64,000 bases of DNA from Candidatus Gottesmanbacteria bacterium (GCA_963711735.1 CAVQFA010000005.1:199525-263524), one strand, 5' to 3'; shown: positions 1 through 61,248, counted from the stretch's first letter. Notes: generated from the sequence alone by a model not told the origin. Numbers and translations are program-made.

Positions 1-9468
<9,468 letters not shown>

Positions 9469-38007: not shown

Positions 38008-40344
38008 TTATAAACTCTCAAGGATTTTTTTAAATTCCGTATCGGTCGGATCTACTTTTGTCAGATACTCCGTAAGTTCTGTCTTCGCTTTTACCGTATC
38101 TTTCCTTTCGTTATAAAACACGAATAGTGCGTAGTATGCATCTTTATAATTTGGTTTCATAGCCTTGGTTTCCTTCAAAGTCTCTATAGCTTTGTCTGTT
38201 TTCCCGCCCTGCCCATAGAGAACTGCCAGGTTATAGAGGATTTTCGGGTCATTCGGAGAAAGAACGCGTGCCTGCGTGAGCGCATCGATGGCAGCATCGT
38301 ATGCTTTTTGGTCATAGGCAGACAGCGCATAAAAGATTTTTGTTCTCGTCTTCCAGAAATTCACGTTAACCGGTGAAGTAAGAATTGCAGTATTCGACTC
38401 GGAAATTGAAGCGTTGATGAGTGTTGTGGCATTTGTCGTATCTTTTGACGCTATTGCCTGCACGGCAAGAGAAGCCAAAGATCCCGCGAGCTCGTCGTGA
38501 TAAAGTGGTTCACCGGGATTGAGACTAATTGCGTGTTCGAAAAGCGGACGCGCAGGACCGGGTAAATCCGAATGATTCAGTCTGTACCCACGGGCAAAGA
38601 GGGTATCTGCGTACCAGAATGCTGATAACCGGAAAATGAGAAATACCCCGAGAGCAAACATTGCATACGGCAAAACAGGACTGATTTTATCGGGAATATG
38701 TATGGTATATGTATTAAAAGTAGGTTTCATTCCGGATAATAGGGTTTTCTGATACACGGTCAGAATAAAGAGAAATATCGGAAACAGGAAGAAAAATAAC
38801 TGGATGATAACGACCGAAAATCCGAAAAAATTCGTAATGAGTATTGATGACCATCCGGCAAAAATGGCAGATATGAGAAACGTTAGTACTATGTGTTGTG
38901 ATGTAACGGAAAGATTGCCGTCTGTATGGATCGAATGCTGAGTATCCGTTTGATAATTCTTATATTTTTGCGGGGACTTTAAATTTCCGGGGTTTAGAAA
39001 CACGGAACGTATAAACCATCCTATGACAAACATTATAAAGACCAGATATGATCCAAGCCCGAATATTCCCGTAGTAGTCAGGTAGTTTAAATATTCATTG
39101 TGCGCTTTGTTGTAGAGATAATCCCATTCGCTCGTCAGATTATGAGCAACAGGTCGGAATCGGAAAAATGCCCATGCAAATGTTTCCGTACCGGTGCCGA
39201 TGAGGAACGTTTTAGTCGTTGATTTCCAGGCAGTTATTGCTGCCTGCCATACGTATTTGCGGATTGTGCCCGATTCCGTTCCGCCGTATTCCAGGAGTGT
39301 ACCCGACGGTTTATCTGCGCTGTCCGGTTGTGTTGTTATGATTGGCGCACGTGCTGTTATTCTTTTGACCAGTGAGTCCAGTGTAAAGTGTTTATCTATC
39401 GCGTCAATATAAGATCCATTGAGAAACACGGTTCCAGCAAAAAGGAAATGTATGACGAGAAATGAGATGGTGTATGCAGGTGCCGGAAATGAGTCTGTTG
39501 ACTTTCCTTTTTGAGATAATTGTTCCCGGATTTTTTGAATAAACAGAGTACCCCAGAATATTCCCTCAGCTACGGCAAATCCTAAGAGTCCCGAGCGTGA
39601 TCGGGTAGAGAGAAGGACGAAGAAGAACAGGAGCGATGTGAGAGACCACAGTATGAACTCCCAGTTCCAAACGATTCGGAATCGTTTATGAGTTTTCATA
39701 TCCGTATGAGAAATTTGGGATTTAAGTGTAAAAAACCAGGCAATCGGGCTTATCGCAACCAGGTATGCCGCAAGCCAATTCGGCTGTCCGAGGGTAGAGA
39801 ATACGCGGGATTGCACATCCTGGACCCAGAGGTGTTTATCTATTCCCATCCGTTCCAATAACCCATAAAATGCAACAACAGTACCAGTAAAGACTATTGT
39901 GCGGAAAAAAAGCATAACAGCATTTTGGTTTTTTTCTGAACTATCGGTTTTATTTTCGTCAGTTTGTTTCCCGGATGTGAAATGGGAAACGGATATAAAG
40001 AAAAGTATCGTATATGCAATGACCGACAACATGCTTCCGTTAAACCGGGAGTAATATCCAAACCAGGAAACGTGCGGATCCGTGGAAAATAAAGCACTTA
40101 CCAACTGCGAAAGGACAAATGCGGCAATTGGTATGTCAAACGGTGTACGCACAAAAACAAATTGTTTCTTTCGGGCGGATGGTATAACCCAGGTTGCAAG
40201 TATGAGGACAGTCAATCCGTACACGATCATCATTTTGTTGTACTCAAACAGTTCGTAGTTCCACGGAGTGAGAATAAGGGGAACGAGGATAAAGAGTAGT
40301 CCGAAGAACCACTGCCGCGTTTTGACCAAAATACTGTCAATCAT
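38008..40344 (-). CDS. Polytopic O-antigen-ligase-like (Wzy_C) membrane protein with C-terminal TPR repeats.
   Basis: ~12 predicted TM helices with a large periplasmic-loop pattern; C-terminal ...AYDAAIDALTQARVLSPNDPKILYNLAVLYGQGGKTDKAIETLKETKAMKPNYKDAYYAL... is TPR. Confidence 0.65.
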   Translation of the reverse strand: MIDSILVKTRQWFFGLLFILVPLILTPWNYELFEYNKMMIVYGLTVLILATWVIPSARKKQFVFVRTPFDIPIAAFVLSQLVSALFSTDPHVSWFGYYSRFNGSMLSVIAYTILFFISVSHFTSGKQTDENKTDSSEKNQNAVMLFFRTIVFTGTVVAFYGLLERMGIDKHLWVQDVQSRVFSTLGQPNWLAAYLVAISPIAWFFTLKSQISHTDMKTHKRFRIVWNWEFILWSLTSLLFFFVLLSTRSRSGLLGFAVAEGIFWGTLFIQKIREQLSQKGKSTDSFPAPAYTISFLVIHFLFAGTVFLNGSYIDAIDKHFTLDSLVKRITARAPIITTQPDSADKPSGTLLEYGGTESGTIRKYVWQAAITAWKSTTKTFLIGTGTETFAWAFFRFRPVAHNLTSEWDYLYNKAHNEYLNYLTTTGIFGLGSYLVFIMFVIGWFIRSVFLNPGNLKSPQKYKNYQTDTQHSIHTDGNLSVTSQHIVLTFLISAIFAGWSSILITNFFGFSVVIIQLFFFLFPIFLFILTVYQKTLLSGMKPTFNTYTIHIPDKISPVLPYAMFALGVFLIFRLSAFWYADTLFARGYRLNHSDLPGPARPLFEHAISLNPGEPLYHDELAGSLASLAVQAIASKDTTNATTLINASISESNTAILTSPVNVNFWKTRTKIFYALSAYDQKAYDAAIDALTQARVLSPNDPKILYNLAVLYGQGGKTDKAIETLKETKAMKPNYKDAYYALFVFYNERKDTVKAKTELTEYLTKVDPTDTEFKKILESL

Positions 40345-40471
40345 GATGATAAGTATATACTATTCCTCATGCGGTTTGCATCCGATGCCGTTTGGCGGAA
40401 AAAATGAACTGATCGGTTAACACACAGCGTGGTAAATTATTATAGGGTTATAAAATACATGTTAGATAAAA

Positions 40472-40500
40472 TTGACAGCAAATATGGCTTGTAGTATGCT
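40472..40500 (+). promoter_or_regulatory. Sigma70-like promoter: TTGACA-17nt-TATGCT upstream of the transglycosylase gene.
   Basis: TTGACA 40472-40477, 17-nt spacer, TATGCT 40495-40500. Confidence 0.4.
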
Positions 40501-40545
40501 CCTTTCGGTTATATTTATCGGATAGAATCCGTTGACCGAATCTTT

Positions 40546-41250
40546 ATGAATCGTCGTGAGGGTGATTATCGTTATGATGACGGCGGCATGAGTAGGGGAG
40601 AATCAGTGAAAGCATTAGCAGCTATCGGAGGAGGCGTGCTATTATTATCAATTCTTTTCAGTATGGATAGATTCCTGCGGGGATTACAGGGAGAAGATGG
40701 AAATGCAGATTTTCCGGCAGGTTCTGACACCCTCAATTCCGTAGAGACATATTACTCGTGTCCTGATAGTATATCATTTCCGGGAGGCAAGTTAGAGCTT
40801 TACGGAAGGACATTTTGGGAAGCGGAGTGGCCGGATGTTGCACGGTGGTCGGGTGATGTAAACGCCGTTCTTGAAGCGTATCCGTTTGGAAATATGACTA
40901 TGAGGCAATATCTTGAAAGCATCGGTCTCGATCCTCTTAATTTTATTCTTTCGATGGTCTGGGTGGAAAGCAGCGGTGTACTTAATGCAGACGATGGTAT
41001 ATCTTTCGGTCTTATGGGTACCGTAACGAAAGAGGCAAGCGATAAATATAGCTGGGCGGTAAATCGTCCAAGTAAAAATGATTTGTGGGATGACCCAAGA
41101 GAACAGATCCGGACGGGTGTTGATATTTTAGCGCAGTCAATCAATCAGAATGGTGGATTTTTTGAAGGATTATCGCATTATAATACAGGAGATAATTACG
41201 CAAACAGGGAAATATTATTACACGACACGCTCAATTCTTTTTGTAAGTAA
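40546..41250 (+). CDS. Membrane-anchored lytic transglycosylase (SLT domain).
   Basis: VWVESSGVLNADDGISFGLMG matches the E-S ... GLMQ catalytic region of the SLT domain; N-terminal TM. Confidence 0.7.
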   Translation: MNRREGDYRYDDGGMSRGESVKALAAIGGGVLLLSILFSMDRFLRGLQGEDGNADFPAGSDTLNSVETYYSCPDSISFPGGKLELYGRTFWEAEWPDVARWSGDVNAVLEAYPFGNMTMRQYLESIGLDPLNFILSMVWVESSGVLNADDGISFGLMGTVTKEASDKYSWAVNRPSKNDLWDDPREQIRTGVDILAQSINQNGGFFEGLSHYNTGDNYANREILLHDTLNSFCK

Positions 41251-41404
41251 AATTTTACCGATTTACATACGTTAAATTAGTTAGAATAATAGAGTATAAA
41301 AATATCCTGTAACTATTGACAAACTGATAATCTTCTATACAATTACTGATATCTTTGACGGTATTTCATCATAAAATGTATTAAACGTATTACTAAACAG
41401 TTTT

Positions 41405-42454
41405 ATGCATACTCCGGAAATCAGTGAGGCAAATAACGAATTCGGTCAGGAAATCAGATTAGGAAGACGGTCATTTCCTCTTGCACCATTGGATATGGGA
41501 CCGCTTGGTGACGCAGATCCGCGTGATATATATGCATCTTATTTACTTGATCAGTATCCGACAGAAGATCCAAATACTCATATAGCACTTTTCAGTTCAG
41601 GAGATCCGAAAATACAACCACCGGTCACATATGTACTTATTGATTACCGTATTCAGGAGATAGAACCACAATATGAACCGGTCGATACCGGATTTGAGTA
41701 TGCGCTCTCTGTTGCCGAGCAGATGTTTGCAGGTGCTGATCCCCGTGGTGCAATGGAGGAGGCCTTCAATTTTCTCTGCGCACAGACCGGAGGGGATCAA
41801 GCACTAGCGCGTGCATTAACGGAACATGCAGCCAGTCAGGCTTTAGACCTACAGAGATTAGCCGGTGAAGGAAAACTGAATGATCATTATGAGTATGACT
41901 ACTACATGCGGGAAGTGACGGATAGTAAATCAAAGCATAAGCATGAAACAGGTGGTGAAAATCCTTCGTCTGAAAGTACCAAATCCAAATCCCGTACACA
42001 GCGGATGGAATTTGAAAAACAAAGGGATGATTCTCCGTTTCCGGAAGGCATCCAACAGAATGCTATTGCTGAGTGGGAGTCTGCATATCCAAGTATATTA
42101 GTAACGCGCCCGGGACAAGCTTTTGCTGTTTCCGGTCACGAACCCCGAAGAAGAAGCCTGTGGAATAAGTTGTTCGGCCAGCATCCGCAAAGGGAATCTT
42201 ATGAGCAGGAACAATCATTAGAAGCATACGCACAGGTTGATGAGCATGGTGCTTGGGCGAAAGGAACCGGTCCGCGATCTATTGCGGTTGCCACCGGACC
42301 ATTATCCATGCATATTGGTTCAAGTTTACGAAAGGGCAATGTTGATTTTTCACTTGGACGTGAATCACAGAGCCGTTCAGTCCATATGGCCAGACAACCT
42401 CATAATACGTATATACTGTATCCTTCTCAACCGCAGCAGGAAAAGTCTGAATAA
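41405..42454 (+). CDS. Hypothetical acidic cytoplasmic protein (island gene 1).
   Basis: 349 aa, no TM/signal, low-complexity charged middle (KSKHKHETGGENPSSESTKSKSR); no family recognised. Confidence 0.5.
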   Translation: MHTPEISEANNEFGQEIRLGRRSFPLAPLDMGPLGDADPRDIYASYLLDQYPTEDPNTHIALFSSGDPKIQPPVTYVLIDYRIQEIEPQYEPVDTGFEYALSVAEQMFAGADPRGAMEEAFNFLCAQTGGDQALARALTEHAASQALDLQRLAGEGKLNDHYEYDYYMREVTDSKSKHKHETGGENPSSESTKSKSRTQRMEFEKQRDDSPFPEGIQQNAIAEWESAYPSILVTRPGQAFAVSGHEPRRRSLWNKLFGQHPQRESYEQEQSLEAYAQVDEHGAWAKGTGPRSIAVATGPLSMHIGSSLRKGNVDFSLGRESQSRSVHMARQPHNTYILYPSQPQQEKSE

Positions 42455-42469
42455 CATCATCGACATTAT

Positions 42470-43447
42470 ATGCCGCGATCAGAATCATCAGCATTAAAAT
42501 CTGAGATTGCTGTGCATATTCCTCAGTTATCCCGAGAGGATGCCTGTCGCTACGTCTTCTTTCAGGCTGTATCCGGTGTCATTGGTGATGCAATACCTAT
42601 GTACGACAGAGATCCGTATACAAAAGGTGAATTAGAGATGGTAAAGACTCGATATGAAGGATATGCATGGGATATGTATGATAGTCATATTGCATCAGCA
42701 GCAGCATACGGACAGGAAGCATACGCCGATATCATAGGCAACCCCGATGCTCCTGTGGGTCGGGCTGTAGCATGGAACAGAGAACGTTCCGGTGAAGTTT
42801 ATGCCCATGCAGGAAGGGGAAAAACGCTTCTAGATGCCAATATTGAACAATTTAACCGTGGAAAAAAGGTTGACAAGCATGTACGGGAAGCAATACGACC
42901 CTTTTTTAAAGGGGGTGTTGGGCGATGGTTGGCACGTCAGGGCATAGGTCACGGTGGAATATATGTGATAGATGAAGAAGCGCTCGAACGTGAGATATCA
43001 CCGGATACACGTAAAATGGTTCATGAATATCGTCAGATGATCGATGCCCAGCTTGAGGGTGCAGATCCCAGTAGCATTGGTGATCCGATTTCAATTGCCC
43101 AACAGGAGATTAGCTCGGTTCTCAGAAGAGGAGAAGTTGTACACCGACAAATAATGGAGGAACTTGAAAAACATCATTTTACATTTACCTGGAAAGAGGG
43201 TAGAGGACTTTTTAAAAAAACAGTAGATTGCTCGACAATTGTTGATAGAAACGATCCGGATACGTATTCTGAGCTTTTTCGAATAGTATGCAATTGTATA
43301 GCACACAACGGAGTCTGTTTACGACTAAATGATGCAATTGATGAGCTGAGACAGACAGAATGGGTCGATGATGATGGGTATTTAATTAGACTTCAGTATT
43401 TTGAGAATGATGGCACTCCCGTATGGGTTTACCCAAGTGATATATAA
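42470..43447 (+). CDS. Hypothetical protein (island gene 2) with weak Walker A-/B-like motifs.
   Basis: EVYAHAGRGKTLL fits [AG]x4GK[ST]; GGIYVIDEE fits hhhhDE ~50 aa later. This could be chance. Confidence 0.5.
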   Translation: MPRSESSALKSEIAVHIPQLSREDACRYVFFQAVSGVIGDAIPMYDRDPYTKGELEMVKTRYEGYAWDMYDSHIASAAAYGQEAYADIIGNPDAPVGRAVAWNRERSGEVYAHAGRGKTLLDANIEQFNRGKKVDKHVREAIRPFFKGGVGRWLARQGIGHGGIYVIDEEALEREISPDTRKMVHEYRQMIDAQLEGADPSSIGDPISIAQQEISSVLRRGEVVHRQIMEELEKHHFTFTWKEGRGLFKKTVDCSTIVDRNDPDTYSELFRIVCNCIAHNGVCLRLNDAIDELRQTEWVDDDGYLIRLQYFENDGTPVWVYPSDI

Positions 43448-43520
43448 TAATAAATTATAGGTTATTGATCAGCATAAAACGTTCATATTTTGTGTGAAAT
43501 AAAACTTCTTAAGCTTAGTG

Positions 43521-43548
43521 TTGACACGTATAAATTCCTGAGTATAAT
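43521..43548 (+). promoter_or_regulatory. Near-consensus sigma70-like promoter TTGACA-16nt-TATAAT upstream of island gene 3.
   Basis: TTGACA 43521-43526, TATAAT 43543-43548. Confidence 0.45.
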
Positions 43549-43596
43549 ACAACATATCAAAGTGTATAAAACAACTGCCGTTAAACTTAATTAACT

Positions 43597-44808
43597 ATGC
43601 CAGCAACAAATGAAAATCTCAAACAACCCGAACTTGGAAATGCTGTTTCCAGATTGGTGTATGAAACATATGGAATAAACCGTTTTTCCGTAAAAACACT
43701 CAACACATTAGAAATCCTTCATCAGGAGAATAACACTATATCTGATCGTGTTCTTGAAGATGGAATTAAGGAAGCGCAAAACCTTATAACTTCAATTCGT
43801 CATGAAGCAAGAGAAATCAATCCCGATGACGCAGTACGGCTTTTTTCATCTTTAGTTCATAAAATCGGTGAGAGTGATGATTTGTCTCCGTTTGATAAGG
43901 AAGCACTTGCAAATGCGAAAGCTGCAATTGATGAAGGATCCGTTCGTGGTGTCATGGCTGATATCCTCACGAAATTATCCGGCAATCCGTTAGGTATAAA
44001 GGCTAACATTGAACAATCCGGAAGTGTGGTTGCACGTAAAGATTCCCGCGGAGCAGGTGAAACGGGTCAATCTTTTCTTGATAAAATTTCTAAAACACTT
44101 TCTCCTCAAATGGAAGCAGTGACTCCTGAAGGGGTTCGTTTGAAAGTTGATGCTGATCCGAAACAGGATATTTTATCGCAATTCAATTTGCAGAAGGCAG
44201 TTCAGGATAACAAAAGTTGGGGATTAATTACTGCAACTGTAACAGCACTGAGTTTTTACGCAATCTCAGTGCCTAGTATCGTTAGAGGATTAAACAGTGC
44301 AACAGAGACTTCCTGGATAGGAGTGGCGGGTGGTATTGGACTCAATGCTGCAGAAACAGCTCTCATTCACGCATTTGCCCATCCTGAATTTATGGGTGGT
44401 CTGGGTGTGTCGGAAAAAATCAGTAAATATGGTATTGCCGGTTTATTAGGAGCAATATATGCACTTGATTTTGGTGCAACATTATATCAGTTCAGCAGAG
44501 GCACAGTGCCTCCTGATCAGGTCGGGATGGTATTGACGTGGAGTATGCGTGGTTTAAGCGCATTGTGTGCGGCCGTTTTGCCTGAAATATCTACAGAAAT
44601 TGCACTGGCGATGTGGAAATTGAGAAATAAAGGAAGCAGTGGTTTTGCTCCGTCATTAAGTACGCCCAGACCGGCGCCATCTTTATCCGGTATGCCACCT
44701 TCACAATCTGGATACAGGAGACCGGAACCTTCATATCATCCGGTATCAGGTACAAATCCCAATATTCCACCTCTCAAAAAACCACCGTCAATTTTTAATA
44801 AAAAATAG
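43597..44808 (+). CDS. Hypothetical protein (island gene 3): soluble N-domain, central cluster of hydrophobic helices, Pro-rich C-terminal tail.
   Basis: No signal peptide; TM-like block WGLITATVTALSFYAISVPSIV...LSALCAAVLPEIS; tail PSLSTPRPAPSLSGMPPSQSGYRRPEPSYHP...PPLKKPPSIFNKK. Confidence 0.5.
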   Translation: MPATNENLKQPELGNAVSRLVYETYGINRFSVKTLNTLEILHQENNTISDRVLEDGIKEAQNLITSIRHEAREINPDDAVRLFSSLVHKIGESDDLSPFDKEALANAKAAIDEGSVRGVMADILTKLSGNPLGIKANIEQSGSVVARKDSRGAGETGQSFLDKISKTLSPQMEAVTPEGVRLKVDADPKQDILSQFNLQKAVQDNKSWGLITATVTALSFYAISVPSIVRGLNSATETSWIGVAGGIGLNAAETALIHAFAHPEFMGGLGVSEKISKYGIAGLLGAIYALDFGATLYQFSRGTVPPDQVGMVLTWSMRGLSALCAAVLPEISTEIALAMWKLRNKGSSGFAPSLSTPRPAPSLSGMPPSQSGYRRPEPSYHPVSGTNPNIPPLKKPPSIFNKK

Positions 44809-44820
44809 ACAGTATTCTGT

Positions 44821-45906
44821 ATGGCAAAATCAGAATTAAGTGAAAAAATCCGTAAACAATGGAACGAACAGGGGGTCTGCTTACCGATACCACAACGGGT
44901 TGCTCTATTGGCAAAAAATTTACTTTTTTCTCCTCCGGATGATGTACGACCAGCGGATATTTCTCCGGAAAACCTGGGATTACTGGATGTGGACAGGGAT
45001 TCACTTGGCCAGAAAGTACAGAAATTTTCGCTCGGAGATGAACATATCGTCGATATTTACATGTTAGAGGCTGATGGTCAGATGTTCATTACTTACGCAG
45101 TAGACATTAGTAATGTTTCTTTACCAACTATTCGCAGAATAAGACGAGATCTTCTTTATACGTGTAAGGATGGTGTTCATCCGGATGCAGAAGATACGAG
45201 GTTTGAAATGGGCAGACTTGATGGACGTTATCACGTATTTGCATCGTACGTACAGGTTTCTGACGAAAATCTCTTAACAGAACTTTATATTAAGAGAAAT
45301 ATGGTTCTTTCAGGTTTGCTAAACGGTACATTGAGGAATAATCTTCAAAATAGACAAAATTCACATCAAAAACTTTCTGATATTAAAGAAGATATTTCTC
45401 CGGAAACAAAAAAAATTTCGGAAATAGAAAGAAAACTGTGGAAATTTTATCGAGAAACCAGGATTCATTTCATTGACATATCACCCATGATGCAAAACAT
45501 ATCGCAGGATCCGTTAGCCGATTTAAAAAAACAAGCAGAACTACTTTTCCAATTGGAAGGACGTTATAAAAATGAGCAAACGGTACTCAGTACCCGATTG
45601 AAAAATGAAGGTGAAATTTACTGGCACGAACTTGTATTACGTGTTCCCGATAATGAGGAACTTCGTTTAATATCAGGTGCGATGATGTATGTCTCTCTGG
45701 GCAACAACGCGACTGTAGAACAAAAAAGAATTGATTTAGCAAGATCTGCCTATAAGCTTTTGCGCTCGGTTGGTTTTATACCGGCAGACGTCCAAAATTC
45801 CGATGAAATGCTTCACGAGTTAACCGGGATTTTAGGAACTGAATCAGGAGAAACACCGACTCAGATGCCTCTTGTCGATGATGGATATGATTCGGAGTAT
45901 CAATAA
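44821..45906 (+). CDS. Hypothetical cytoplasmic protein (island gene 4).
   Basis: 361 aa, no recognisable motif. Confidence 0.5.
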   Translation: MAKSELSEKIRKQWNEQGVCLPIPQRVALLAKNLLFSPPDDVRPADISPENLGLLDVDRDSLGQKVQKFSLGDEHIVDIYMLEADGQMFITYAVDISNVSLPTIRRIRRDLLYTCKDGVHPDAEDTRFEMGRLDGRYHVFASYVQVSDENLLTELYIKRNMVLSGLLNGTLRNNLQNRQNSHQKLSDIKEDISPETKKISEIERKLWKFYRETRIHFIDISPMMQNISQDPLADLKKQAELLFQLEGRYKNEQTVLSTRLKNEGEIYWHELVLRVPDNEELRLISGAMMYVSLGNNATVEQKRIDLARSAYKLLRSVGFIPADVQNSDEMLHELTGILGTESGETPTQMPLVDDGYDSEYQ

Positions 45907-45970
45907 ATTTCCGCACGTTTTTCATCGCATATTTTTATATTCATTGGTTTTTTTATAACACCATACCTAT

Positions 45971-46309
45971 ATGACCGGAGAAAGGGAACAGCTAGCGGTT
46001 TTACGTGAGCGGATTATATATACTCCCTGCGATCATGAGCTTAGGGCTATTCATATGGAAGGCGGCGGGTATGTGTTTATTACAAAACCTCCGGTTGCGG
46101 ATGATACAGGGAATACTACGTATCCGTTTGTCGCGTATGTCACCTTCATGATGGGAGGAAATTCATTTTCATGCCCTGATTGCGGGACAAGCTGCCATCT
46201 TACATACCCTCACGCATCTTCCGTATATAATCCGGATACCATGCGTTCATTCTACAATGCGTTTGCGGTAGTATTCTCCCGTCTGGAAATCGTTTCTGAG
46301 CTTGAGTGA
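45971..46309 (+). CDS. Small hypothetical protein with a Cys cluster (SCPDCGTSCH) (island gene 5).
   Basis: 112 aa; possible zinc-ribbon-like C..C...C. Confidence 0.4.
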   Translation: MTGEREQLAVLRERIIYTPCDHELRAIHMEGGGYVFITKPPVADDTGNTTYPFVAYVTFMMGGNSFSCPDCGTSCHLTYPHASSVYNPDTMRSFYNAFAVVFSRLEIVSELE

Positions 46310-46398
46310 CTTTTAATTATTTTCCATCAGGTAAAAAAGATGAAAACGTTGCTTTAACGTGTTAAAATACGGCAAATCGTTTACAAAAAGATCATTAT

Positions 46399-47085
46399 AT
46401 GTCAGGATCTCCGGATACAAAACCGAATAAATTTCCGCCATCCCTCGAGATATCGCTTGCGATTCGTGAAGAACTCAAGCATGCGGTGGATAAACGATCT
46501 CCCTTTCACCAGATTATTTCTTCAGAAATTTTTGCACAGGTATTTTCACAACGGGTAGAGTTAATGAGAACGCTCCGGCATAAACGGGGAGCAATAATAA
46601 TAGATCCGGTTACTGATGATTCAGAGGGACTGGGTATCAGAGTTTCAATTGTTTGGACGAAAAAAAATGATAAATCTTTGGAAGTCCTCTATGATGACAA
46701 AGCAAGAATTCAGCTGTTACAGCGTTGGTATATGAATTTAGCCAAAGCAATGCAGCAGCCAAACGAAAAGATCGCGTGGTCGGTTGCAACCGGCGTACTT
46801 ATTGAATCTACGGAAGCGTTAGGGATAACACCTGAGGAAGAACCCCGTCCGGGCATGTTGGATATTACTTATAGAGATGACCCTGTTATTCAAAGTCAGC
46901 TTGACAACATGCGTCGGATTGCTGAAATCGGAGAAATAAACAACCGGGATACGCTGGAAGAATATCTGCGTTCTGTGTGGGAAATTATCGGAGTTGTTGA
47001 TGATCAGACAAAGAGACAGATGACGGATCGTTCACCGGATGTAATCATGGGTGGCGTCTCAAATGATTCTATTCACACATGGTGA
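46399..47085 (+). CDS. Hypothetical cytoplasmic protein (island gene 6).
   Basis: 228 aa, no recognisable motif. Confidence 0.5.
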   Translation: MSGSPDTKPNKFPPSLEISLAIREELKHAVDKRSPFHQIISSEIFAQVFSQRVELMRTLRHKRGAIIIDPVTDDSEGLGIRVSIVWTKKNDKSLEVLYDDKARIQLLQRWYMNLAKAMQQPNEKIAWSVATGVLIESTEALGITPEEEPRPGMLDITYRDDPVIQSQLDNMRRIAEIGEINNRDTLEEYLRSVWEIIGVVDDQTKRQMTDRSPDVIMGGVSNDSIHTW

Positions 47086-47157
47086 CCCTTCACTGTGGTT
47101 TTTCATAGATCAAAGAATGTACGGAAGATTTATTGTAGATATAAATTGTCGGATATT

Positions 47158-47616
47158 TCAGAACGGAAAACCATCGTCAGGTATTTTATCCGGTCCGTTC
47201 AATGCTTCACGGATTTCTCCCAGAAGGTTTTCCTGATCCTGAGCTCCCGGAATATTATATCCGGAGTGTTTGGCTGCTTCAATTAACAAGATGCGCCGTG
47301 TTTTCAATGCATCTCTGATTGCCTTTCCGCCGTCAGGAATCACGGCAGCGAGATCTCCGCGTGGTCCGAATTTTTTATCACTCTTTTCTAATTCCTGTAA
47401 TTGTTTCAGGTTCAAATTTTTCAGTGCAGCCGGGTCATCAATGGGTAGACCGGCGTATTGAAGGATATTTCGGATAGCTCCTTGTGTTAGGGGTTCAAAA
47501 CCGACCGGAGGTTCGGATATAAATTCCGGAGGTTGAACATTACTTGGCTGTGTGTGTGCTCTATATTCAAACCCTCCGCTTCTGATCGTGAATCCTTTTG
47601 GTTCAGTATCTGTCAT
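47158..47616 (-). CDS. Hypothetical protein.
   Basis: 152 aa ORF convergent with the island; no motif. Confidence 0.4.
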   Translation of the reverse strand: MTDTEPKGFTIRSGGFEYRAHTQPSNVQPPEFISEPPVGFEPLTQGAIRNILQYAGLPIDDPAALKNLNLKQLQELEKSDKKFGPRGDLAAVIPDGGKAIRDALKTRRILLIEAAKHSGYNIPGAQDQENLLGEIREALNGPDKIPDDGFPF

Positions 47617-47682
47617 AGTACGCGTATTATATCAATTATATGCAATTTTAATCAGTTATAACGTTTATGATAGAATGATGCC

Positions 47683-48750
47683 ATGTTTAATTTTCTCTTT
47701 GGACTTTTTTCCCATGACCTCGGAATTGACCTCGGAACTGCCAATACTCTTGTGTATGTGAAGGGCAAAGGTATCATGATCAGGGAACCTTCCGTTGTTG
47801 CGCGCCACAGGAAAACAAAGGCAATTATTGCAATAGGCATGGAGGCTAAAAAGATGCTCGGGAAAACTCCCGGTACAATTGAAGCCCTCCGGCCTCTCAA
47901 AGACGGTGTGATTGCGGATTTTGATGCTGCGGAAGCCATGATATCCCATTATATCAAGCTTATCCACGATCTTCCGGGTAACGGACCATCGTTTCTGCCG
48001 AAAATTCCGCGTCCGAAGGTCGTTGTCGGTATCCCGTCCGGAGTAACCGAGGTGGAACGGAGAGCCGTACAGGAGGCGTGCCTCATGGCAGGAGCGCGTG
48101 AGGCGTTCCTTATAGAGGAACCTATGGCTGCTGCAATTGGAGCCAACCTGCCGATTCAGGAAAGCAATGGTAGCTTTATCTGCGATATAGGCGGGGGAAC
48201 AACGGAAATTGCGGTTTTGTCTCTCGGCGGGATTGTAGTGAACCGGTCTATCAGAACTGCCGGAGATGAGATGGATGAAGTCATAGCATCATATTTACGT
48301 CTGAAACACGGGATATTAGTCGGGGAACAGACAGCAGAGGAAATTAAAATTACCATAGGATCAGCGTATGCATCGGAAAAAAATGAAAAGCAGATGGTTG
48401 TGCGCGGTCGTGACATAGAATCCGGGCTGCCGAAGACGATTAAAGCTACAAGTGAAGAAGTGCGGGAAGCAATCATGCCTGTCATTCATGAGATTACTGA
48501 AGCGATAGCAGAAACGATTGAGGAGACTCCTCCTGAGCTTACAAGTGATATTGTGGAGCATGGTATCGTTATGGCGGGTGGCGGGTCACTCATGCCCGGC
48601 ATAGATACACTCATTGCAAAAGAAATGAAAATGCCGGTGTGGATAACCGATGATCCCCAGACTGCGGTTGTGAGAGGATGCGGAAAGCTTCTCGATGATG
48701 CAAAACTGCTTCAGACCGTCCGTGTTGCATCAAGGAAGATTTATAATTAA
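47683..48750 (+). CDS. mreB: Rod-shape-determining actin homolog MreB.
   Basis: GIDLGTANTLVYVKGKGI...; actin-fold phosphate-1/phosphate-2 motifs; 355 aa. Confidence 0.9.
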   Translation: MFNFLFGLFSHDLGIDLGTANTLVYVKGKGIMIREPSVVARHRKTKAIIAIGMEAKKMLGKTPGTIEALRPLKDGVIADFDAAEAMISHYIKLIHDLPGNGPSFLPKIPRPKVVVGIPSGVTEVERRAVQEACLMAGAREAFLIEEPMAAAIGANLPIQESNGSFICDIGGGTTEIAVLSLGGIVVNRSIRTAGDEMDEVIASYLRLKHGILVGEQTAEEIKITIGSAYASEKNEKQMVVRGRDIESGLPKTIKATSEEVREAIMPVIHEITEAIAETIEETPPELTSDIVEHGIVMAGGGSLMPGIDTLIAKEMKMPVWITDDPQTAVVRGCGKLLDDAKLLQTVRVASRKIYN

Positions 48751-48751
48751 T

Positions 48752-49315
48752 ATGGCTCTTGCTCATTTTATATCCCGTGTATTTGAACCGTCAGTCGTAT
48801 TACTTCTTTTTACGATCGGTGCGGTTTGGACAAGTACGTTAACACTCAGCGGAAAAGTAATTTTTCTTATCGCATTATTATTATGCATGTTTGTTCCGGT
48901 CATGCTCCTTCGTGTCTGGGCAGTGAAGAAGGGAATTTTGGGTGATTGGGATGTGTCCAAAAGGGAACAGCGTCCGAAAGCATTACTCGTTCTCTTGCTG
49001 CTGGGGTTTGTTAATCTCATTATTGTGAAAATATTCGGGGATGGGATGCTTTTCAGGATTTTTCTCGTTTTTTATGGATGGCTTCTCGGATTTTCTCTTA
49101 TTACGCTTTGGTGGAAAATTTCCGGACATGTCGGAATCACAACTCTGGCTGCGGGACTTATGTTTCATTCCCTCGGAATACACTATTGGCCGGTTCTCAT
49201 CTCCGTTCCGCTGGTTGGATGGTCACGGGTAACAACCGGAAATCACACTCCCAGTCAGGTTCTGGGAGGTGCCGCATATTCTTTTGTTATCATATGGCTT
49301 TATAGTTTAGTATAA
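48752..49315 (+). CDS. PAP2-superfamily membrane phosphatase-like protein.
   Basis: KREQRP (KxxxxxxRP-like), ISGHVG (SGH) and SRVTTGNH (SR...H) in order, within a polytopic membrane protein. Confidence 0.55.
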   Translation: MALAHFISRVFEPSVVLLLFTIGAVWTSTLTLSGKVIFLIALLLCMFVPVMLLRVWAVKKGILGDWDVSKREQRPKALLVLLLLGFVNLIIVKIFGDGMLFRIFLVFYGWLLGFSLITLWWKISGHVGITTLAAGLMFHSLGIHYWPVLISVPLVGWSRVTTGNHTPSQVLGGAAYSFVIIWLYSLV

Positions 49316-49338
49316 GAAGTTTTCGCAGGTATATTTAT

Positions 49339-51231
49339 TTGCTGCCATCTCACCAAGATATGAAATTCGGTAAAGCATTTTCCGATTCCGTCGTTTTACA
49401 CAAAAAACAGGAGACAAATATTTGGCATGACAAACCGGATGCCTGGTATCTGGGACGCGGAAGGATTTTGCTTTTTACAGTTATCCTTTTTGTCAGTTTT
49501 TTTATCCTCGTTATCCGGATGTTTCACCTGACAATTGTAAAAGGGAATGAGTATCGTTCAATTGCCGAAAGCAACCGTACGCGTGAGCTTGTCCGTCATG
49601 CTCCGCGCGGTATTATCAGGGACCGGACAGGCAAACCTCTCGTTACCAATGTTGCCAGGTACCGTTTGTTATATCCGTGTCCGACCAAATCTGAGGGATC
49701 TAAGGAATGCAGCAAAATAATTTCAAAAGAAGAAGGAGAGAAAATATCAAAAACAGGATTGCAGCCGGGTGAATTTCTTGAAGTTGATTACGAAAGAACG
49801 TATCCGTCAGGCTCAGACATGGCGCATCTGATAGGATATACGGGTGAGATTACCAAAATGGAACTGGACGAGCAGTATTTTCAGCTTCGCGCATACAGGT
49901 CCGGGGACAAAATTGGCAGGAGCGGTGTTGAAGCGGTGTTTGAAGACCGGCTCAGAGGCCGTGACGGCAAGGAACTCGTCGAAGTAGACGCAACAGGGAA
50001 GTTACTGCGGACACTTGGTATTGACCGTGAACAGCCGGGTACGGATGTTACGCTTGCAGTGGACGCGTCATTGTCCCGCGTTGTTGCCGGTGCATTTCCG
50101 GCTGGAAGAAAGGGTGCAATTGTTGTTACAAAACCGTCAACCGGCGAGGTCCTTGCATTGTATTCAAGTCCTTCGTTCGACCCGGAGATTTTTTCGCAGA
50201 CGCTCAGTACGGATACATATAGGGATGTGTTGAAAAATCCCGAGATGCCTCTTTTTAACCGTGCAGTCGGCGGAGAATACCCGCCGGGGTCTACTTTTAA
50301 ACTTATAACAGCCGTTGCCGGGCTGGAAGACAAGGCTATAACCTCACAAACGACGATTGTCGATACGGGTGTCGTGACAATCGGAACGTTCAGCTTTGCC
50401 AACTGGTATTTTACGCAGTACGGGAAAACAGAGGGAGCGGTTGATATCGTAAAAGCACTGCAAAGAAGCAATGACATCTTTTTTTATAAAGTAGGAGAAC
50501 GGTTGGGAATTACCAAACTCGCAGCATGGGCAAAAACATTCGGTATGGGTAGACTGACCGGCATTGAGCTCGATGGCGAGTCACCGGGGCTCATGCCTGA
50601 TCCGGCATGGAAAAAAAAGCATTTTTCAACTCAGGCTGAAATTGAAGCGCGGATGGATGCGTGGTATACGGGAGACACGTATCACGCTGCCATCGGACAG
50701 GGATATATGCTTGCGACACCTTTGCAGGTTAACACATGGACAAATATTGTGGCAGATAACGGGATTTTGTGCCGTCCGACTGTAGAAAAAATTCAGGTGA
50801 ATCATAAGCGCGTTTGTCAGGACCTTTCAATATCTCCGGATACTGTGAACATCGTTGTACATGGTATGGTAGGAGCATGTGGTGAGGGAGGGACGGGATG
50901 GCCGCTTGTAGGATTCGGAATTCCTAAATCTTCCCCTGCGGAATCTTCATCTTCAGGTCAGACGAAGGATAGTCTGAGGAGTATACCGGTTGCCTGCAAA
51001 ACCGGTACAGCAGAATTCGGGGATCCGACAGGAAAAACGCACGCCTGGTTTACGGTTTTCGCTCCGGTACCTGAGGAATATCTCGGGAAATCAGGAGCTA
51101 CGTCGAAAGAGGGTGAGTTATCCGGTGATCCGGAGATAACGGTCACTGTTCTTATTGAAGAGGGAGGAGAAGGTTCATCAGTTGCAGCGCCGATTGCCAA
51201 AACCATTCTTACATCATGGTTCGGACGGTAA
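49339..51231 (+). CDS. mrdA: Penicillin-binding protein 2 (transpeptidase), MrdA-like.
   Basis: N-terminal TM; PPGSTFKLITAV (SxxK), SNDIFF (SxN), KTGTAE (KTG). Confidence 0.85.
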   Translation: MLPSHQDMKFGKAFSDSVVLHKKQETNIWHDKPDAWYLGRGRILLFTVILFVSFFILVIRMFHLTIVKGNEYRSIAESNRTRELVRHAPRGIIRDRTGKPLVTNVARYRLLYPCPTKSEGSKECSKIISKEEGEKISKTGLQPGEFLEVDYERTYPSGSDMAHLIGYTGEITKMELDEQYFQLRAYRSGDKIGRSGVEAVFEDRLRGRDGKELVEVDATGKLLRTLGIDREQPGTDVTLAVDASLSRVVAGAFPAGRKGAIVVTKPSTGEVLALYSSPSFDPEIFSQTLSTDTYRDVLKNPEMPLFNRAVGGEYPPGSTFKLITAVAGLEDKAITSQTTIVDTGVVTIGTFSFANWYFTQYGKTEGAVDIVKALQRSNDIFFYKVGERLGITKLAAWAKTFGMGRLTGIELDGESPGLMPDPAWKKKHFSTQAEIEARMDAWYTGDTYHAAIGQGYMLATPLQVNTWTNIVADNGILCRPTVEKIQVNHKRVCQDLSISPDTVNIVVHGMVGACGEGGTGWPLVGFGIPKSSPAESSSSGQTKDSLRSIPVACKTGTAEFGDPTGKTHAWFTVFAPVPEEYLGKSGATSKEGELSGDPEITVTVLIEEGGEGSSVAAPIAKTILTSWFGR

Positions 51232-51234
51232 ACA

Positions 51235-51984
51235 TTACTCCCGTATATCGTCAAACGACCAGAACACAGTTCTATTAAAAATCATAATCCAGATCACATT
51301 TATAAACCGGATAATTACTTCCCTGATGAGGCGAATTGGTGAATGGAACCTTCTGCCGGACATATATACTTTTAAATCCCAACACCATTTCACAGTACCT
51401 ACCCGTTTCAGTTGCCGTGCCAGATATCTGTCTGACTGCAGGTTTACAGCAGTTGATAAACCGCCGATCTTTTCATAAGCATGTTTCCGGAATGCGATAT
51501 TTGCACCGATTGGCGAAAGAGTTCCCGTTACTTTCTGAAATTTCATAAGCAGGGTATTGCCGTATTTAAGTAATGACGACTTGTCCGAAAAGTAGCACGG
51601 CCCGCCGACGCATACCACCTCCGGATTTTCAAATTGCTTCATAAGAAACTCCATCCAATGGCGCCCGTGTGTTGTGTCGGCATCAGTAATTGCAATAATT
51701 GGAGCACGTGCCTGTGATATTCCCTTTAGGAAAGCGTATATATACCCTTTCCGTTTTTCGGATATGACACGGACATTTTTAAACGATGCAGCTATTGATG
51801 CAGTGTTATCGGTAGACGCGTTGTCTATAACGATTATTTCGTATGTATATGCAGTTTGCTGGCTATTCAGCGTTTCCAGACATTTTCCCAGTAAAAGTTC
51901 TTCGTTATATGCCGGAATGCAGATGGATACATCCGGTATGGTTGTACGAATATCAGTATTCCGCTCTGCTGGACTCCCATTCAT
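51235..51984 (-). CDS. Family-2 glycosyltransferase.
   Basis: ICIPAYNEE...IIVIDNASTDNT GT-A fold N-terminus with DxD region. Confidence 0.75.
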   Translation of the reverse strand: MNGSPAERNTDIRTTIPDVSICIPAYNEELLLGKCLETLNSQQTAYTYEIIVIDNASTDNTASIAASFKNVRVISEKRKGYIYAFLKGISQARAPIIAITDADTTHGRHWMEFLMKQFENPEVVCVGGPCYFSDKSSLLKYGNTLLMKFQKVTGTLSPIGANIAFRKHAYEKIGGLSTAVNLQSDRYLARQLKRVGTVKWCWDLKVYMSGRRFHSPIRLIREVIIRFINVIWIMIFNRTVFWSFDDIRE

Positions 51985-52007
51985 GTGTCAGACTATAATA
52001 CACGAAT

Positions 52008-52724
52008 ATGGCCGTAAAATCAGTAAGTGTCATTATTCCTGCATTAAACGAAGAGCGGACGGTCGCCGGTATTGTGCAGAGTGTTTTAACATGGAGGGAC
52101 GATGTACAGGTTATCGTTGTTGACGATGGGTCCATCGACGGGACATATGCATCAGTTGCGCGGTTTAAAACACGACTGACACTTATCCGTCAAAAAAATA
52201 TGGGGCAGGGGGCGGCTATCGCTGCAGGTTTGGTAAAAGCGCAAAACGAGATTATTCTCTGTATTGACGCGGATGTTACCTCGGTTACACATTTTGACCT
52301 TGACGCAATGATTGCACCTCTTGAAAAAGGTTCAGAAGATATGGCAATTGCAGTTCTCCAATACTGGAAAAAGGGGTCTTTTGAACCGTTTAACGACATA
52401 AGCGGCACGAGATCGTTTTTCAGGAAAAACGTTTTATCGCGTATAGATGAAATCCGGAAGAGTAAATACGGTATCACTGTTCTTATCAATGATATCCATG
52501 CCAAAAAGCGCGTTGGGTATGTACGGCTGCCGTATGTCTATGTTCTCGGAAAATTTGATAAACAATCCGTACCTGATGCGATGCGGACATATGTAAAAGA
52601 AGCGGCAGAGCTCACGTTTCAGGCACTTCGCCAACAGGCTAAAGACGTGACACCGTCCACGAAAAAGATTCTGAAAAGCATCCAATCCTACCTCAGATCC
52701 GCTCTCGAATACATCAACTCTTAA
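52008..52724 (+). CDS. Family-2 glycosyltransferase (Dpm1/GtrB-like).
   Basis: VSVIIPALNEE...VIVVDDGSIDGT...CIDADV. Confidence 0.75.
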   Translation: MAVKSVSVIIPALNEERTVAGIVQSVLTWRDDVQVIVVDDGSIDGTYASVARFKTRLTLIRQKNMGQGAAIAAGLVKAQNEIILCIDADVTSVTHFDLDAMIAPLEKGSEDMAIAVLQYWKKGSFEPFNDISGTRSFFRKNVLSRIDEIRKSKYGITVLINDIHAKKRVGYVRLPYVYVLGKFDKQSVPDAMRTYVKEAAELTFQALRQQAKDVTPSTKKILKSIQSYLRSALEYINS

Positions 52725-58080: not shown

Positions 58081-58109
58081 TTGACTGCTGTGTGTCCCTT
58101 CGTTATAAT
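58081..58109 (+). promoter_or_regulatory. Consensus sigma70-like promoter TTGACT-17nt-TATAAT with an AT-rich upstream element; candidate rRNA promoter.
   Basis: TTGACT 58081-58086, TATAAT 58104-58109, ~240 nt upstream of 16S. Confidence 0.45.
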
Positions 58110-58296
58110 CTTTCTACAATGAGCGAGTAGGAGATCGATCAGCAAAGGTTAGATGGATAAATATCCCGACCACTGGTCGGGTTTTTTGATTCGTTAGTTA
58201 ATGAATAAATTCTTATTTATGAGTTTACTAACGATCAATTCAGATTTTTTAGAAACAAAAGAAAAAATCTGAACACCTTAATTCTTCTTCATTGTA

Positions 58297-58309
58297 CGCT
58301 CTTTAACAA
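58297..58309 (+). promoter_or_regulatory. boxA-like antitermination element in the 16S leader.
   Basis: CGCTCTTTAACAA vs the E. coli boxA TGCTCTTTAACAA. Confidence 0.5.
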
Positions 58310-58347
58310 TCGAATGGTGATAGGATAATGAACGGATTTATCCGTTC

Positions 58348-59921
<1,574 letters not shown>

Positions 59922-60023
59922 TAATATAAAATTGTCAGTGATCACGAACTTCGATTGTATCGAAGGGTCGTTGACAGTTTTTCTCTCACAATGTTCCTAT
60001 CACCATCCGGTTGTTAAACAAAT

Positions 60024-60049
60024 TAATCCTCCTTTACGGAGGATTTTTT
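60024..60049 (+). terminator. Rho-independent terminator ~100 nt after the 16S 3' end.
   Basis: AATCCTCC-TTTAC-GGAGGATT followed by TTTTTG. Confidence 0.6.
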
Positions 60050-60243
60050 GTATCTTGTTTAATTCAGAATTACATTAAAATATTTCGTAACATATAGACT
60101 GTCAGAATGCTACGGATGCGTATAATATGATATGCATTTATACTATTAGTAATTGAGGCATGAGAATATACATGTTAAAATCGTTTCGTAGTGACGTTGC
60201 GATAAGGTGGCACAATTGATAATTTCAACCTGAATATGCATTT

Positions 60244-60273
60244 GGCGCGGTGGCGAAGTGGTAACGCGGGTGT
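60244..60273 (+). other. 30-nt partial duplicate of the tRNA-Cys 5' half (acceptor 5' strand + D-arm + anticodon-stem 5' strand).
   Basis: GGCGCGGTGGCGAAGTGGTAACGCGGGTGT vs tRNA-Cys GGCGCAATGGCGAAGTGGAAACGCGGGTGT (3 differences), then diverges. Confidence 0.5.
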
Positions 60274-60348
60274 TAGTCCCAGCACAATCATTCCAAATCT
60301 GAGAAGATTTTGGGAATAGATTTGCGGGATCCCGTATTTGCTAAATTC

Positions 60349-60419
60349 GGCGCAATGGCGAAGTGGAAACGCGGGTGTCTGCAAAACACCTATGCGAGGG
60401 TTCGATTCCCTCCGCGCCT
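60349..60419 (+). tRNA. trnC: tRNA-Cys (anticodon GCA), U73 discriminator; its own 5' acceptor strand pairs poorly with the 3' strand.
   Basis: GGTGT-CTGCAAA-ACACC anticodon arm, GAGGG-TTCGATT-CCCTC T-arm, 3' CCGCGCC-T. 5' GGCGCAA gives only 5/7 acceptor pairs, whereas the upstream partial copy GGCGCGG gives 7/7. Confidence 0.65.
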
Positions 60420-60667
60420 CAACTAAGCAAATACGGGACAAAAACAGCTACCCGCCTCGACTCGCAGAGACAGAGTCGATGCGAGGCGAGTGCAGCGGTT
60501 CGACCTGCCCCGCTGTAGTCCCGAGCTTATCGAAGGATGAAGGAGGGTTCAGGCACACGTAACAATTGTGATAAAATTAACAATCCGAGAGGGTTTACCC
60601 TGTAAATTTCAACGAGTCACGAAGTGACTCGCAAAGAAATATACAAGGTAAATTTTTGAAATTTACA

Positions 60668-60739
60668 GGGTGACTAGTTCATCGGTAGAACGCTTTCCTG
60701 ATAAGAAAGAGGCGCATGGTCCGACTCCATGGTCACCCA
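60668..60739 (+). tRNA. trnI: tRNA-Ile (anticodon GAT).
   Basis: GGGTGAC TA GTTC ATCGGTA GAAC G CTTTC CTGATAA GAAAG AGGCG CATGG TCCGACT CCATG GTCACCC A. Confidence 0.85.
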
Positions 60740-60786
60740 CTGCACAATTTCTTGAGTCACGGAGTTTGGATCGTATAATCGGGCTT

Positions 60787-61183: not shown

Positions 61184-61248
61184 AGTTCATCGGTAGAACG
61201 CTTTCCTGATAAGAAAGAGGCGCATGGTCCGACTCCATGGTCACCCAC
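61184..61248 (+). repeat. 65-nt exact direct repeat of tRNA-Ile positions ~9-76 (3' two-thirds, lacking the 5' acceptor strand); att-site-like.
   Basis: AGTTCATCGGTAGAACGCTTTCCTGATAAGAAAGAGGCGCATGGTCCGACTCCATGGTCACCCAC occurs at 60676-60740 and 61184-61248. Confidence 0.7.

Follow-up and report, generated by a model that had tools for sequence, protein, structure and literature searches.

Flexible genomic islands and defence islands, lodged between core genes, are a concept that comes from pangenome work on Escherichia coli and marine bacteria. The defence genes found in such places usually have a patchy but wide distribution. Another kind of gene cluster with which our locus invites comparison is the hydrolase-led conjugation (type IV secretion) module of the VirB1/PrgK/CwlT type, known in monoderm bacteria. 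This article concerns a block of eight genes, here called G0 to G7, at positions 40345-47682 (7338 bp) of a 64,000-nucleotide stretch of DNA, the window, from a Candidatus Gottesmanbacteria bacterium (GCA_963711735.1, CAVQFA010000005.1:199525-263524). The block lies between a gene for an O-antigen-ligase-like membrane protein and mreB, and we read it, with a probability of about 0.58, as a lineage-specific accessory island in a variable hot spot between these two genes. An initial annotation, made from the sequence alone, had seen here a resident set of unannotatable proteins downstream of a lytic transglycosylase gene. Its judgement that the proteins are unannotatable has held; its judgement that they are resident has not.

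The case for an island begins with its neighbours. To the left is the ligase-like core gene (38008..40344, minus strand; Pfam Wzy_C, with C-terminal TPR repeats) and to the right is the core gene mreB (47683..48750, plus strand; Pfam MreB_Mbl, E=3e-134). The host is a Microgenomates/Gottesmanbacteria-like bacterium of the candidate phyla radiation (CPR), its MreB being 75-76% identical to that of Candidatus Gottesmanbacteria metagenome-assembled genomes (MAGs), and we compared the region with the 80 best related mreB loci, nearly all of them from Microgenomates or other Patescibacteria (many are mislabelled in public records). Of the 80, 59 have an O-antigen-ligase-like/TPR gene upstream of mreB and divergent from it. 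Among these, 38 have at most 500 bp between the two genes, 4 have 0.5-1.2 kb and 17 have 1.2-7.9 kb, against 7338 bp in the window. Ancestrally, the ligase gene and mreB stood directly side by side in divergent orientation. Homologs of the flanking genes recur across the 80 loci (M50 in 32, fmt in 41, def in 46, the ligase in 59, MreB in all 80, PBP2 in 66, DprA in 34 and TopA in 42), while tblastn and phmmer found homologs of G0-G7 in none, the closest loci included. Because the flanks are syntenic in 32-80 loci and the block is in none, the whole of G0-G7, with its SLT-like first gene, reads as a 7.3-kb insertion into a conserved adjacency.

It follows that the residence proposed in the initial annotation has to be given up: the block splits a conserved adjacency, is absent from 80 of 80 loci and has a lower GC content at third codon positions (GC3). 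Nor can the SLT-like gene serve as the resident anchor it was taken for, since G0 is itself absent from all 80 loci and belongs to the insertion, not to the conserved flank. Apart from position, we saw no functional tie of G1-G7 to that gene or to mreB; without homologs the island genes give no co-occurrence signal.

The right boundary of the block is marked by a conserved extended -10 element, TATGATAGAAT (47666..47676, plus strand), which ends 6 nt before the mreB ATG. This stretch is the only upstream sequence common to the window and the three loci closest to it (L001, L002 and L004), and conservation ends about 25 bp above the start codon. As mreB keeps only this element, insertions just upstream need not disturb it. 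In the window (47666-47682) and in the same three loci, mreB has TATGATAGAAT but no Shine-Dalgarno sequence, and the arrangement suggests an mreB mRNA that is leaderless or nearly so. An obvious Shine-Dalgarno sequence was not seen in any gene inspected in the region, housekeeping genes included.

The ligase-mreB interval looks like a flexible, defence-island-like hot spot. The 17 filled gaps hold 1.2-7.9 kb of content unrelated to G0-G7. In L001 (JAUXTO010000042) the cargo is a HicB-like gene, a DUF4258 (BrnT-like) toxin and an M23 hydrolase with transmembrane segments, followed by orphans. L002 carries an MNT/HEPN pair and two large orphan proteins, with no hydrolase. L004 (JBBTWJ010000002) carries a fused M23-transmembrane-SLT hydrolase, five orphans, a MerR/HTH_17 gene, a DUF4325 gene, an SNase nuclease and a toxin-antitoxin pair, and L021 (CAYXSR010000004) has an SLT+M23 hydrolase preceded by three orphans, of which two are membrane proteins, and followed by one more. 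The remaining filled gaps hold HepT/MNT, AbiEii/AbiEi, a ResIII/DEAD/SNF2 helicase, 23S-rRNA-IVP proteins and a few metabolic genes. Using phmmer, jackhmmer and hhalign, we found no similarity between the island proteins of L001, L002, L004 or L021 and G0-G7. Turnover at this site is extreme. The island proteins of L001 and L004 diverge far beyond their core proteins: MreB is 96.6% identical between the two and other core proteins 56-78%, while the hydrolase is 36% and the membrane protein 29% identical, and the other island proteins are unrelated or unrecognisable.

The hydrolases at the site differ in architecture. Two are large membrane-embedded proteins that combine M23 and SLT domains, one in L004 (477-2006; lipoprotein signal, M23, several transmembrane segments, SLT) and one in L021 (6386-8305; transmembrane segment, SLT, M23). 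The L001 hydrolase lies at 4218-5798, and the hydrolases of the related MAGs adjoin orphan membrane proteins. We considered whether an upstream hydrolase is a conserved trait of mreB loci and dropped the idea: one occurs in only 3 of the 80 loci, about what chance would give by our rough estimate.

In the window the site is filled by eight intact genes. On the plus strand are G0 (40546..41250, 234 aa), which is SLT-like, G1 (41405..42454, 349 aa), G2 (42470..43447, 325 aa), G3 (43597..44808, 403 aa), G4 (44821..45906, 361 aa), G5 (45971..46309, 112 aa) and G6 (46399..47085, 228 aa). G7 (47158..47616, minus strand, 152 aa) is convergent with G6, and its start codon is 66 bp from that of mreB. 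The six plus-strand genes and one convergent gene that the initial annotation placed between the SLT-like gene and mreB are thus exactly where it put them, and they are as tightly spaced as it said: neighbouring genes of the island are 12-154 bp apart, and coding sequence makes up 89% of its 7338 bp. We found no paralogs among the island proteins or within the window.

These are real genes and no assembly artefact. We say so because all eight (112-403 codons) show the coding pattern GC1>GC2>GC3, because their codon adaptation index (CAI) is like that of the neighbouring housekeeping genes, and because an independent assembly bears them out. A Logan contig from run ERR12037368 encodes an identical G3, the one product checked by exact sequence, and downstream of it come genes that match G4-G7 and mreB-TopA in lengths, order and spacing. 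An exact-sequence look-up of mreB returned only this same contig, and one of G2 found no second contig.

Three promoter-like sites on the plus strand punctuate the block. P1 (TTGACA-17-TATGCT; 40472..40500) is 46 bp upstream of G0 and matches the sigma-70 consensus at 10/12 positions; P2 (TTGACA-16-TACAAT, 11/12; 41316..41343) is in the 154-bp gap upstream of G1; and P3 (TTGACA-16-TATAAT, 12/12; 43521..43548) is in the 149-bp gap upstream of G3. P3, reported in the initial annotation as near-consensus, is perfect, and is the sole 12/12 sigma-70 site on either strand of the 64-kb window. The site at 40472, which had been called a consensus promoter, is present but falls short of consensus. Five sites in the window score at least 11/12; P2 and P3 are two of them, and a third is upstream of the 16S ribosomal RNA (rRNA) gene. 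From these consensus sigma-70 promoters the block would be transcribed as at least three strong units, namely G0, G1-G2 and G3-G6, with G7 separate.

Composition gives a mixed signal. Mean GC3 is 0.35 in the island and 0.42 in 20 neighbouring genes (Mann-Whitney p=0.0017), while overall GC is scarcely shifted. The earlier statement that there is no GC shift is nearly right for overall GC but does not hold at third codon positions.

G0 is the one member of the block with a recognisable family likeness. In family 1 lytic transglycosylases the catalytic glutamate belongs to an E-S motif, and a GLMQ-like and then an AYNxG-like motif come after it. G0 has an N-terminal Gly/Ala-rich transmembrane helix (residues 23-38) and a C-terminal GH23/SLT-like domain (residues ~131-223) in which VESSG (140-144), FGLMG (154-158) and HYNTG (211-215) come in the expected order. 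The Pfam SLT profile (PF01464) matches at 20.7 bits, a borderline miss of the 21.3-bit gathering cutoff (E=3.2e-4; profile positions 14-105 of 117). Other GH23 signals are weak: a PHROG transglycosylase at E=0.02, and in the PDB a GH23 lysozyme-like chitinase (3w6b) at E=0.34, the alignment with which spans the YN-G motif. An SLT profile built from the L004 and L021 hydrolases gave no alignment with the G0 domain. On the strength of the weak SLT/GH23 matches and the ordered E-S, G-L-M and Y-N-x-G motifs, G0 is probably a GH23-like muramidase, anchored in the membrane by its single helix. The SLT-domain transglycosylase of the initial annotation is made probable by the motifs and the three weak GH23 matches, though its Pfam score stays below the cutoff.

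The other seven proteins are harder to place. They had been described as mostly acidic, as indeed the products are (pI 4.4-5.2) with the exception of G3 (pI 7.0), and the sole clear transmembrane helix is the one in G0. G1 is acidic (pI 5.1) and has no transmembrane helix; read by eye, its C-terminal half seems to be of low complexity and rich in polar residues. G2, also acidic, has a Walker A-like AHAGRGKT at residues 112-119 (nt 42803-42826) and, 50 residues away, a Walker B-like IYVIDE at 164-169 (nt 42959-42976). Such a pair at compatible spacing has a chance probability of 0.0024 in shuffles of all eight proteins (a post hoc test). Neither Pfam nor NCBIfam gave a P-loop match, even to the isolated fragment, and phmmer against the PDB returned no NTPase. 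G2 may be a very divergent P-loop NTPase. We also tried G2 as an AAA+ ATPase, from a co-linear resemblance to FtsH seen by eye. BLASTP against a hand-entered FtsH AAA domain gave an alignment over the Walker A stretch and no more, at E=0.93, and with PDB phmmer and Pfam lending no support either, we keep the idea as a lead.

G3 begins with a soluble N-terminal part of about 205 aa. A Gly/Ala-rich stretch of weak hydrophobicity (~207-345) comes next, and residues 346-403 form a tail rich in Pro and Ser (24% Pro). This is the hydrophobic block and proline-rich tail noted in the initial annotation, and G3 is possibly a membrane protein. The Cys-cluster mini-protein noted there is G5, with Cys20, Cys68-x2-Cys71 and Cys75 and His residues nearby; in Pfam it draws only zinc-finger matches below threshold, and the four-Cys motif is a possible zinc ribbon-like element. 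G4 is acidic with no transmembrane helix, G6 is acidic with neither Cys nor a transmembrane helix, and G7, also acidic, is absent from 80/80 loci. AlphaFold2 models from single sequences were unusable (mean predicted local distance difference test, pLDDT, 34.6 for G2 and 38.0 for G4).

A small oddity within G4 is an exact 16-nt direct repeat, GATATTTCTCCGGAAA, which occurs twice (44956-44971 and 45391-45406), the second copy being in frame with the first and 435 nt further on. Both encode D-I-S-P-E and hold a short palindrome, TTTC-N4-GAAA. By our own estimate, chance would produce about 0.02 repeats of this kind in 11.5 kb.

The searches for relatives came back empty. G1-G7 have no significant match in Pfam, PHROGs, NCBIfam or PADLOC, even as fragments, and no sequence match in the PDB; for all eight proteins the PADLOC models gave zero matches at E up to 1. 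Billion-scale protein searches covered G0, G2 and G4 of the island genes, and among 5.8 billion clustered proteins each recovered only itself, as did G2 in a full HMMER scan of 1.84 billion representatives. When G0-G7 were concatenated and run by tblastn against 50,697 phage and 72,556 plasmid records, nothing matched. G1, G3, G4 and G6 were also used in pattern scans of IMG/VR, and G1 and G6 in scans of JGI metagenomes, all with negative results. The case that these proteins are unannotatable is thus stronger than was first claimed, G0, G2 and G4 having no homolog in the searches run. Ten of ten proteins looked up, mreB among them, are singletons at 90% identity clustering, so the lineage is sparsely sampled.

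Several observations weigh against an accessory island, or against the role that one would most readily give it. No integrase or transposase domain turned up among G0-G7 in Pfam, no transfer RNA (tRNA) was found in or beside the block, and no flanking (att-like) direct repeats surround it; the lack of an integrase and of a tRNA border was reported correctly in the initial annotation. The tetranucleotide signature of the island is only 1.2-1.8 standard deviations above the local mean distance, and its CAI is that of the host genes. The nearest genomes are distant (MreB at most 76% identical, PBP2 ~53%, PAP2 ~37%), and fast-evolving orthologs could escape detection, so that the absence of G0-G7 elsewhere could in part be divergence, not insertion. 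For G1, G3, G5, G6 and G7, homologs were sought in the local loci, in records of phages and plasmids, by pattern scans and in profile libraries. A role in conflict, finally, is suggested by association with the site, and the phage, plasmid, PHROG and PADLOC searches gave no match that would bear it out.

What else could the block be? Its genes might be left over from a mobile element of a CPR host, such as a phage or plasmid, and no longer serve the cell; this would account for the all-orphan content, the lower GC3 and promoters that look like phage early promoters of consensus type. The site is an insertion hot spot, and the Gly/Ala-rich, signal-anchor-like helix predicted in G0 is reminiscent of those of SAR (signal-arrest-release) endolysins. 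We nonetheless think a remnant unlikely: there is no hallmark mobile gene, PHROGs offer only the weak transglycosylase signal of G0, the phage, plasmid and IMG/VR searches were empty, and eight intact reading frames at 89% coding density argue against decay in a streamlined genome. At the other end of the scale, an assembly chimera or a set of false reading frames would explain why there are no homologs and why all the proteins are singletons at 90% clustering. It deserves next to no weight, given the independent Logan contig, the coding pattern and host-like CAI of the long reading frames and the synteny of both flanks with relatives.

Two further explanations keep the block tied to its position. 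The initial annotation favoured a coherent resident system in which G1-G6 and the SLT-like G0 serve the cell wall or MreB. Tight, co-directional packing of intact genes under strong promoters is what such a system would look like, as is a place beside mreB-PAP2-PBP2, and L001, L004 and L021 likewise have a peptidoglycan hydrolase upstream of mreB. Those three loci, however, are the near-chance 3 of 80 already mentioned; with the genes in 0/80 mreB loci there is no evolutionary linkage to mreB, and the lack of homologs leaves no co-occurrence to be shown. The block is divided by at least three separate promoters, and the convergent G7 blocks read-through into mreB. We regard a coherent resident system as distinctly unlikely. 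Alternatively, the island might be orthologous to the hydrolase-led clusters in L001 and L004 (and possibly L021) but extremely diverged, that is, a position-conserved, hyper-fast envelope module of the Gottesmanbacteria clade. Position and orientation are shared, with a membrane-anchored peptidoglycan hydrolase first, then a membrane protein and long orphans. The L001 and L004 clusters are themselves at 29-36% identity or beyond detection while MreB is at 96.6%, and at the window's distance from both, homology would be invisible. Against this, phmmer, jackhmmer and hhalign found no similarity; the type of hydrolase, the number and lengths of genes and the membrane topologies are all unlike; the SLT-like domain of G0 does not align with those of L004 and L021; and L002, equally close, has no hydrolase at the site. 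That the clusters are orthologous seems to us quite unlikely.

On our preferred reading, an accessory island in a hot spot, the block would have arrived by horizontal transfer, probably through recombination across the conserved flanks, and DprA, encoded nearby, fits natural transformation. G0 would act outside the membrane as an anchored GH23-like muramidase, with G3 as a membrane-associated partner, G5 as a small zinc-binding protein and G1, G4, G6 and G7 as soluble acidic proteins. By analogy with what accumulates in such hot spots, the island might be a conflict or envelope module, a tentative suggestion that we hold at well under even odds. We saw no evidence that the eight genes make up one machine. 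A working new conflict or envelope system built of all-new families is improbable, at about the level that we allow a resident system. The G0 muramidase, a very divergent AAA-like G2, a membrane G3 and a zinc-ribbon G5 would there cooperate in an anti-phage or anti-host role, or else make up one of the hydrolase-led modules that, in Gottesmanbacteria-like CPR bacteria, would evolve hyper-fast yet keep their position beside mreB.

The core content of the window comprises genes for 16S rRNA, ribosomal protein, nusG, def-fmt and mreB-PAP2-PBP2-dprA-topA, and several other features were noted. Here (47683-51231), as in the closest relatives (L001, L004 and L040), the gene right after mreB encodes a PAP2 phosphatase and the next one PBP2, leaving no room for mreC or mreD. 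In L002 PBP2 comes directly after mreB, and in most other Microgenomates loci 1.3-2.5 kb separate the two. The interval between PBP2 and dprA (51235-52724) holds two GT2 glycosyltransferase genes that have a counterpart in 0/80 loci, unlike PBP2, DprA and TopA; the pair is thus another small insertion particular to this lineage, the second in this syntenic block. Further along is a full-length 16S rRNA gene (58351-59920), whose promoter at 58081 matches the consensus at 11/12 positions. Behind it come tRNA-Cys and tRNA-Ile, and beyond these the protein-coding reading frames are on the opposite strand (window 58081-60740). A 23S gene was not seen between the 16S gene and the window end, so the rRNA genes are possibly unlinked. 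At 61184-61239 there is a partial tRNA-like match in Rfam. At the other end of the window (1-9468), three very large neighbouring reading frames (272-2323, 2450-5092 and 5020-9468) consist of collagen-like Gly-X-Y repeats in tandem units of 27 to 477 nt, with a GC content of 0.56-0.62 and a strong AT skew. The last of them (1482 aa) ends in H-type lectin and SH3_3 domains. These probably encode one or more giant surface fibre proteins, and the breaks between them may be repeat-induced assembly or frameshift artefacts.

What does such an island amount to? Genomic islands are common in Patescibacteria genomes (PMC12455944). Since orphan-rich islands are known, ours is a further case of a known kind of feature. 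The interval between the ligase gene and mreB is a clean example, in streamlined CPR genomes, of a hot spot for recombination or insertion. Some 7 kb of a small genome is given over to strongly promoted genes, and for the three that were searched among billions of sequences (G0, G2 and G4) no relative turned up. The organism is uncultured and the functional handle on the island is a set of weak motifs, which limits its immediate value. Hot spots of this kind tend to yield new defence or host-interaction functions, so the site is a reasonable target for mining across Microgenomates.

Set beside described systems, the island keeps its distance from most. It differs from an mreBCD or elongasome operon in that 0/80 mreB loci have homologs of its genes and in that the convergent G7 separates the G3-G6 unit from mreB. 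G0 resembles SLT/GH23 family 1 (PF01464) in its ordered motifs and in that its three independent weak matches are all to GH23. It is also membrane-anchored, with a catalytic domain predicted to lie outside the membrane, as are many transglycosylases associated with envelope machines. It departs from the family in scoring below the gathering cutoff, in having no homolog among 5.8e9 proteins and in a domain that does not align to its SLT counterparts in the L004 and L021 hydrolases. VirB1/PrgK/CwlT modules likewise begin with a membrane-anchored hydrolase followed by co-directional, small, poorly conserved proteins, one of them a membrane protein. The island, however, has no VirB4/VirD4 ATPase, relaxase or VirB6- or VirB8-like match in Pfam or NCBIfam, its sole ATPase-like signal is the candidate motif pair in G2, and none of the 72,556 plasmid records matched it. 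The hydrolase-led clusters of L001, L004 and L021 share its position, its orientation, a hydrolase with one or more transmembrane segments and a mix of membrane and long domainless proteins; their hydrolase domains and gene order differ, and they have no detectable similarity to G0-G7. Flexible genomic islands come closest. Ours differs from them in carrying no recognisable defence, mobility or integration gene and in having no homologs elsewhere. Like them, it is a variable segment bounded by two syntenic core genes, rich in orphans and perhaps slightly deviant in composition, at a site that stands empty in most relatives and elsewhere holds different cargo, much of it toxin-antitoxin, Abi or restriction-like.

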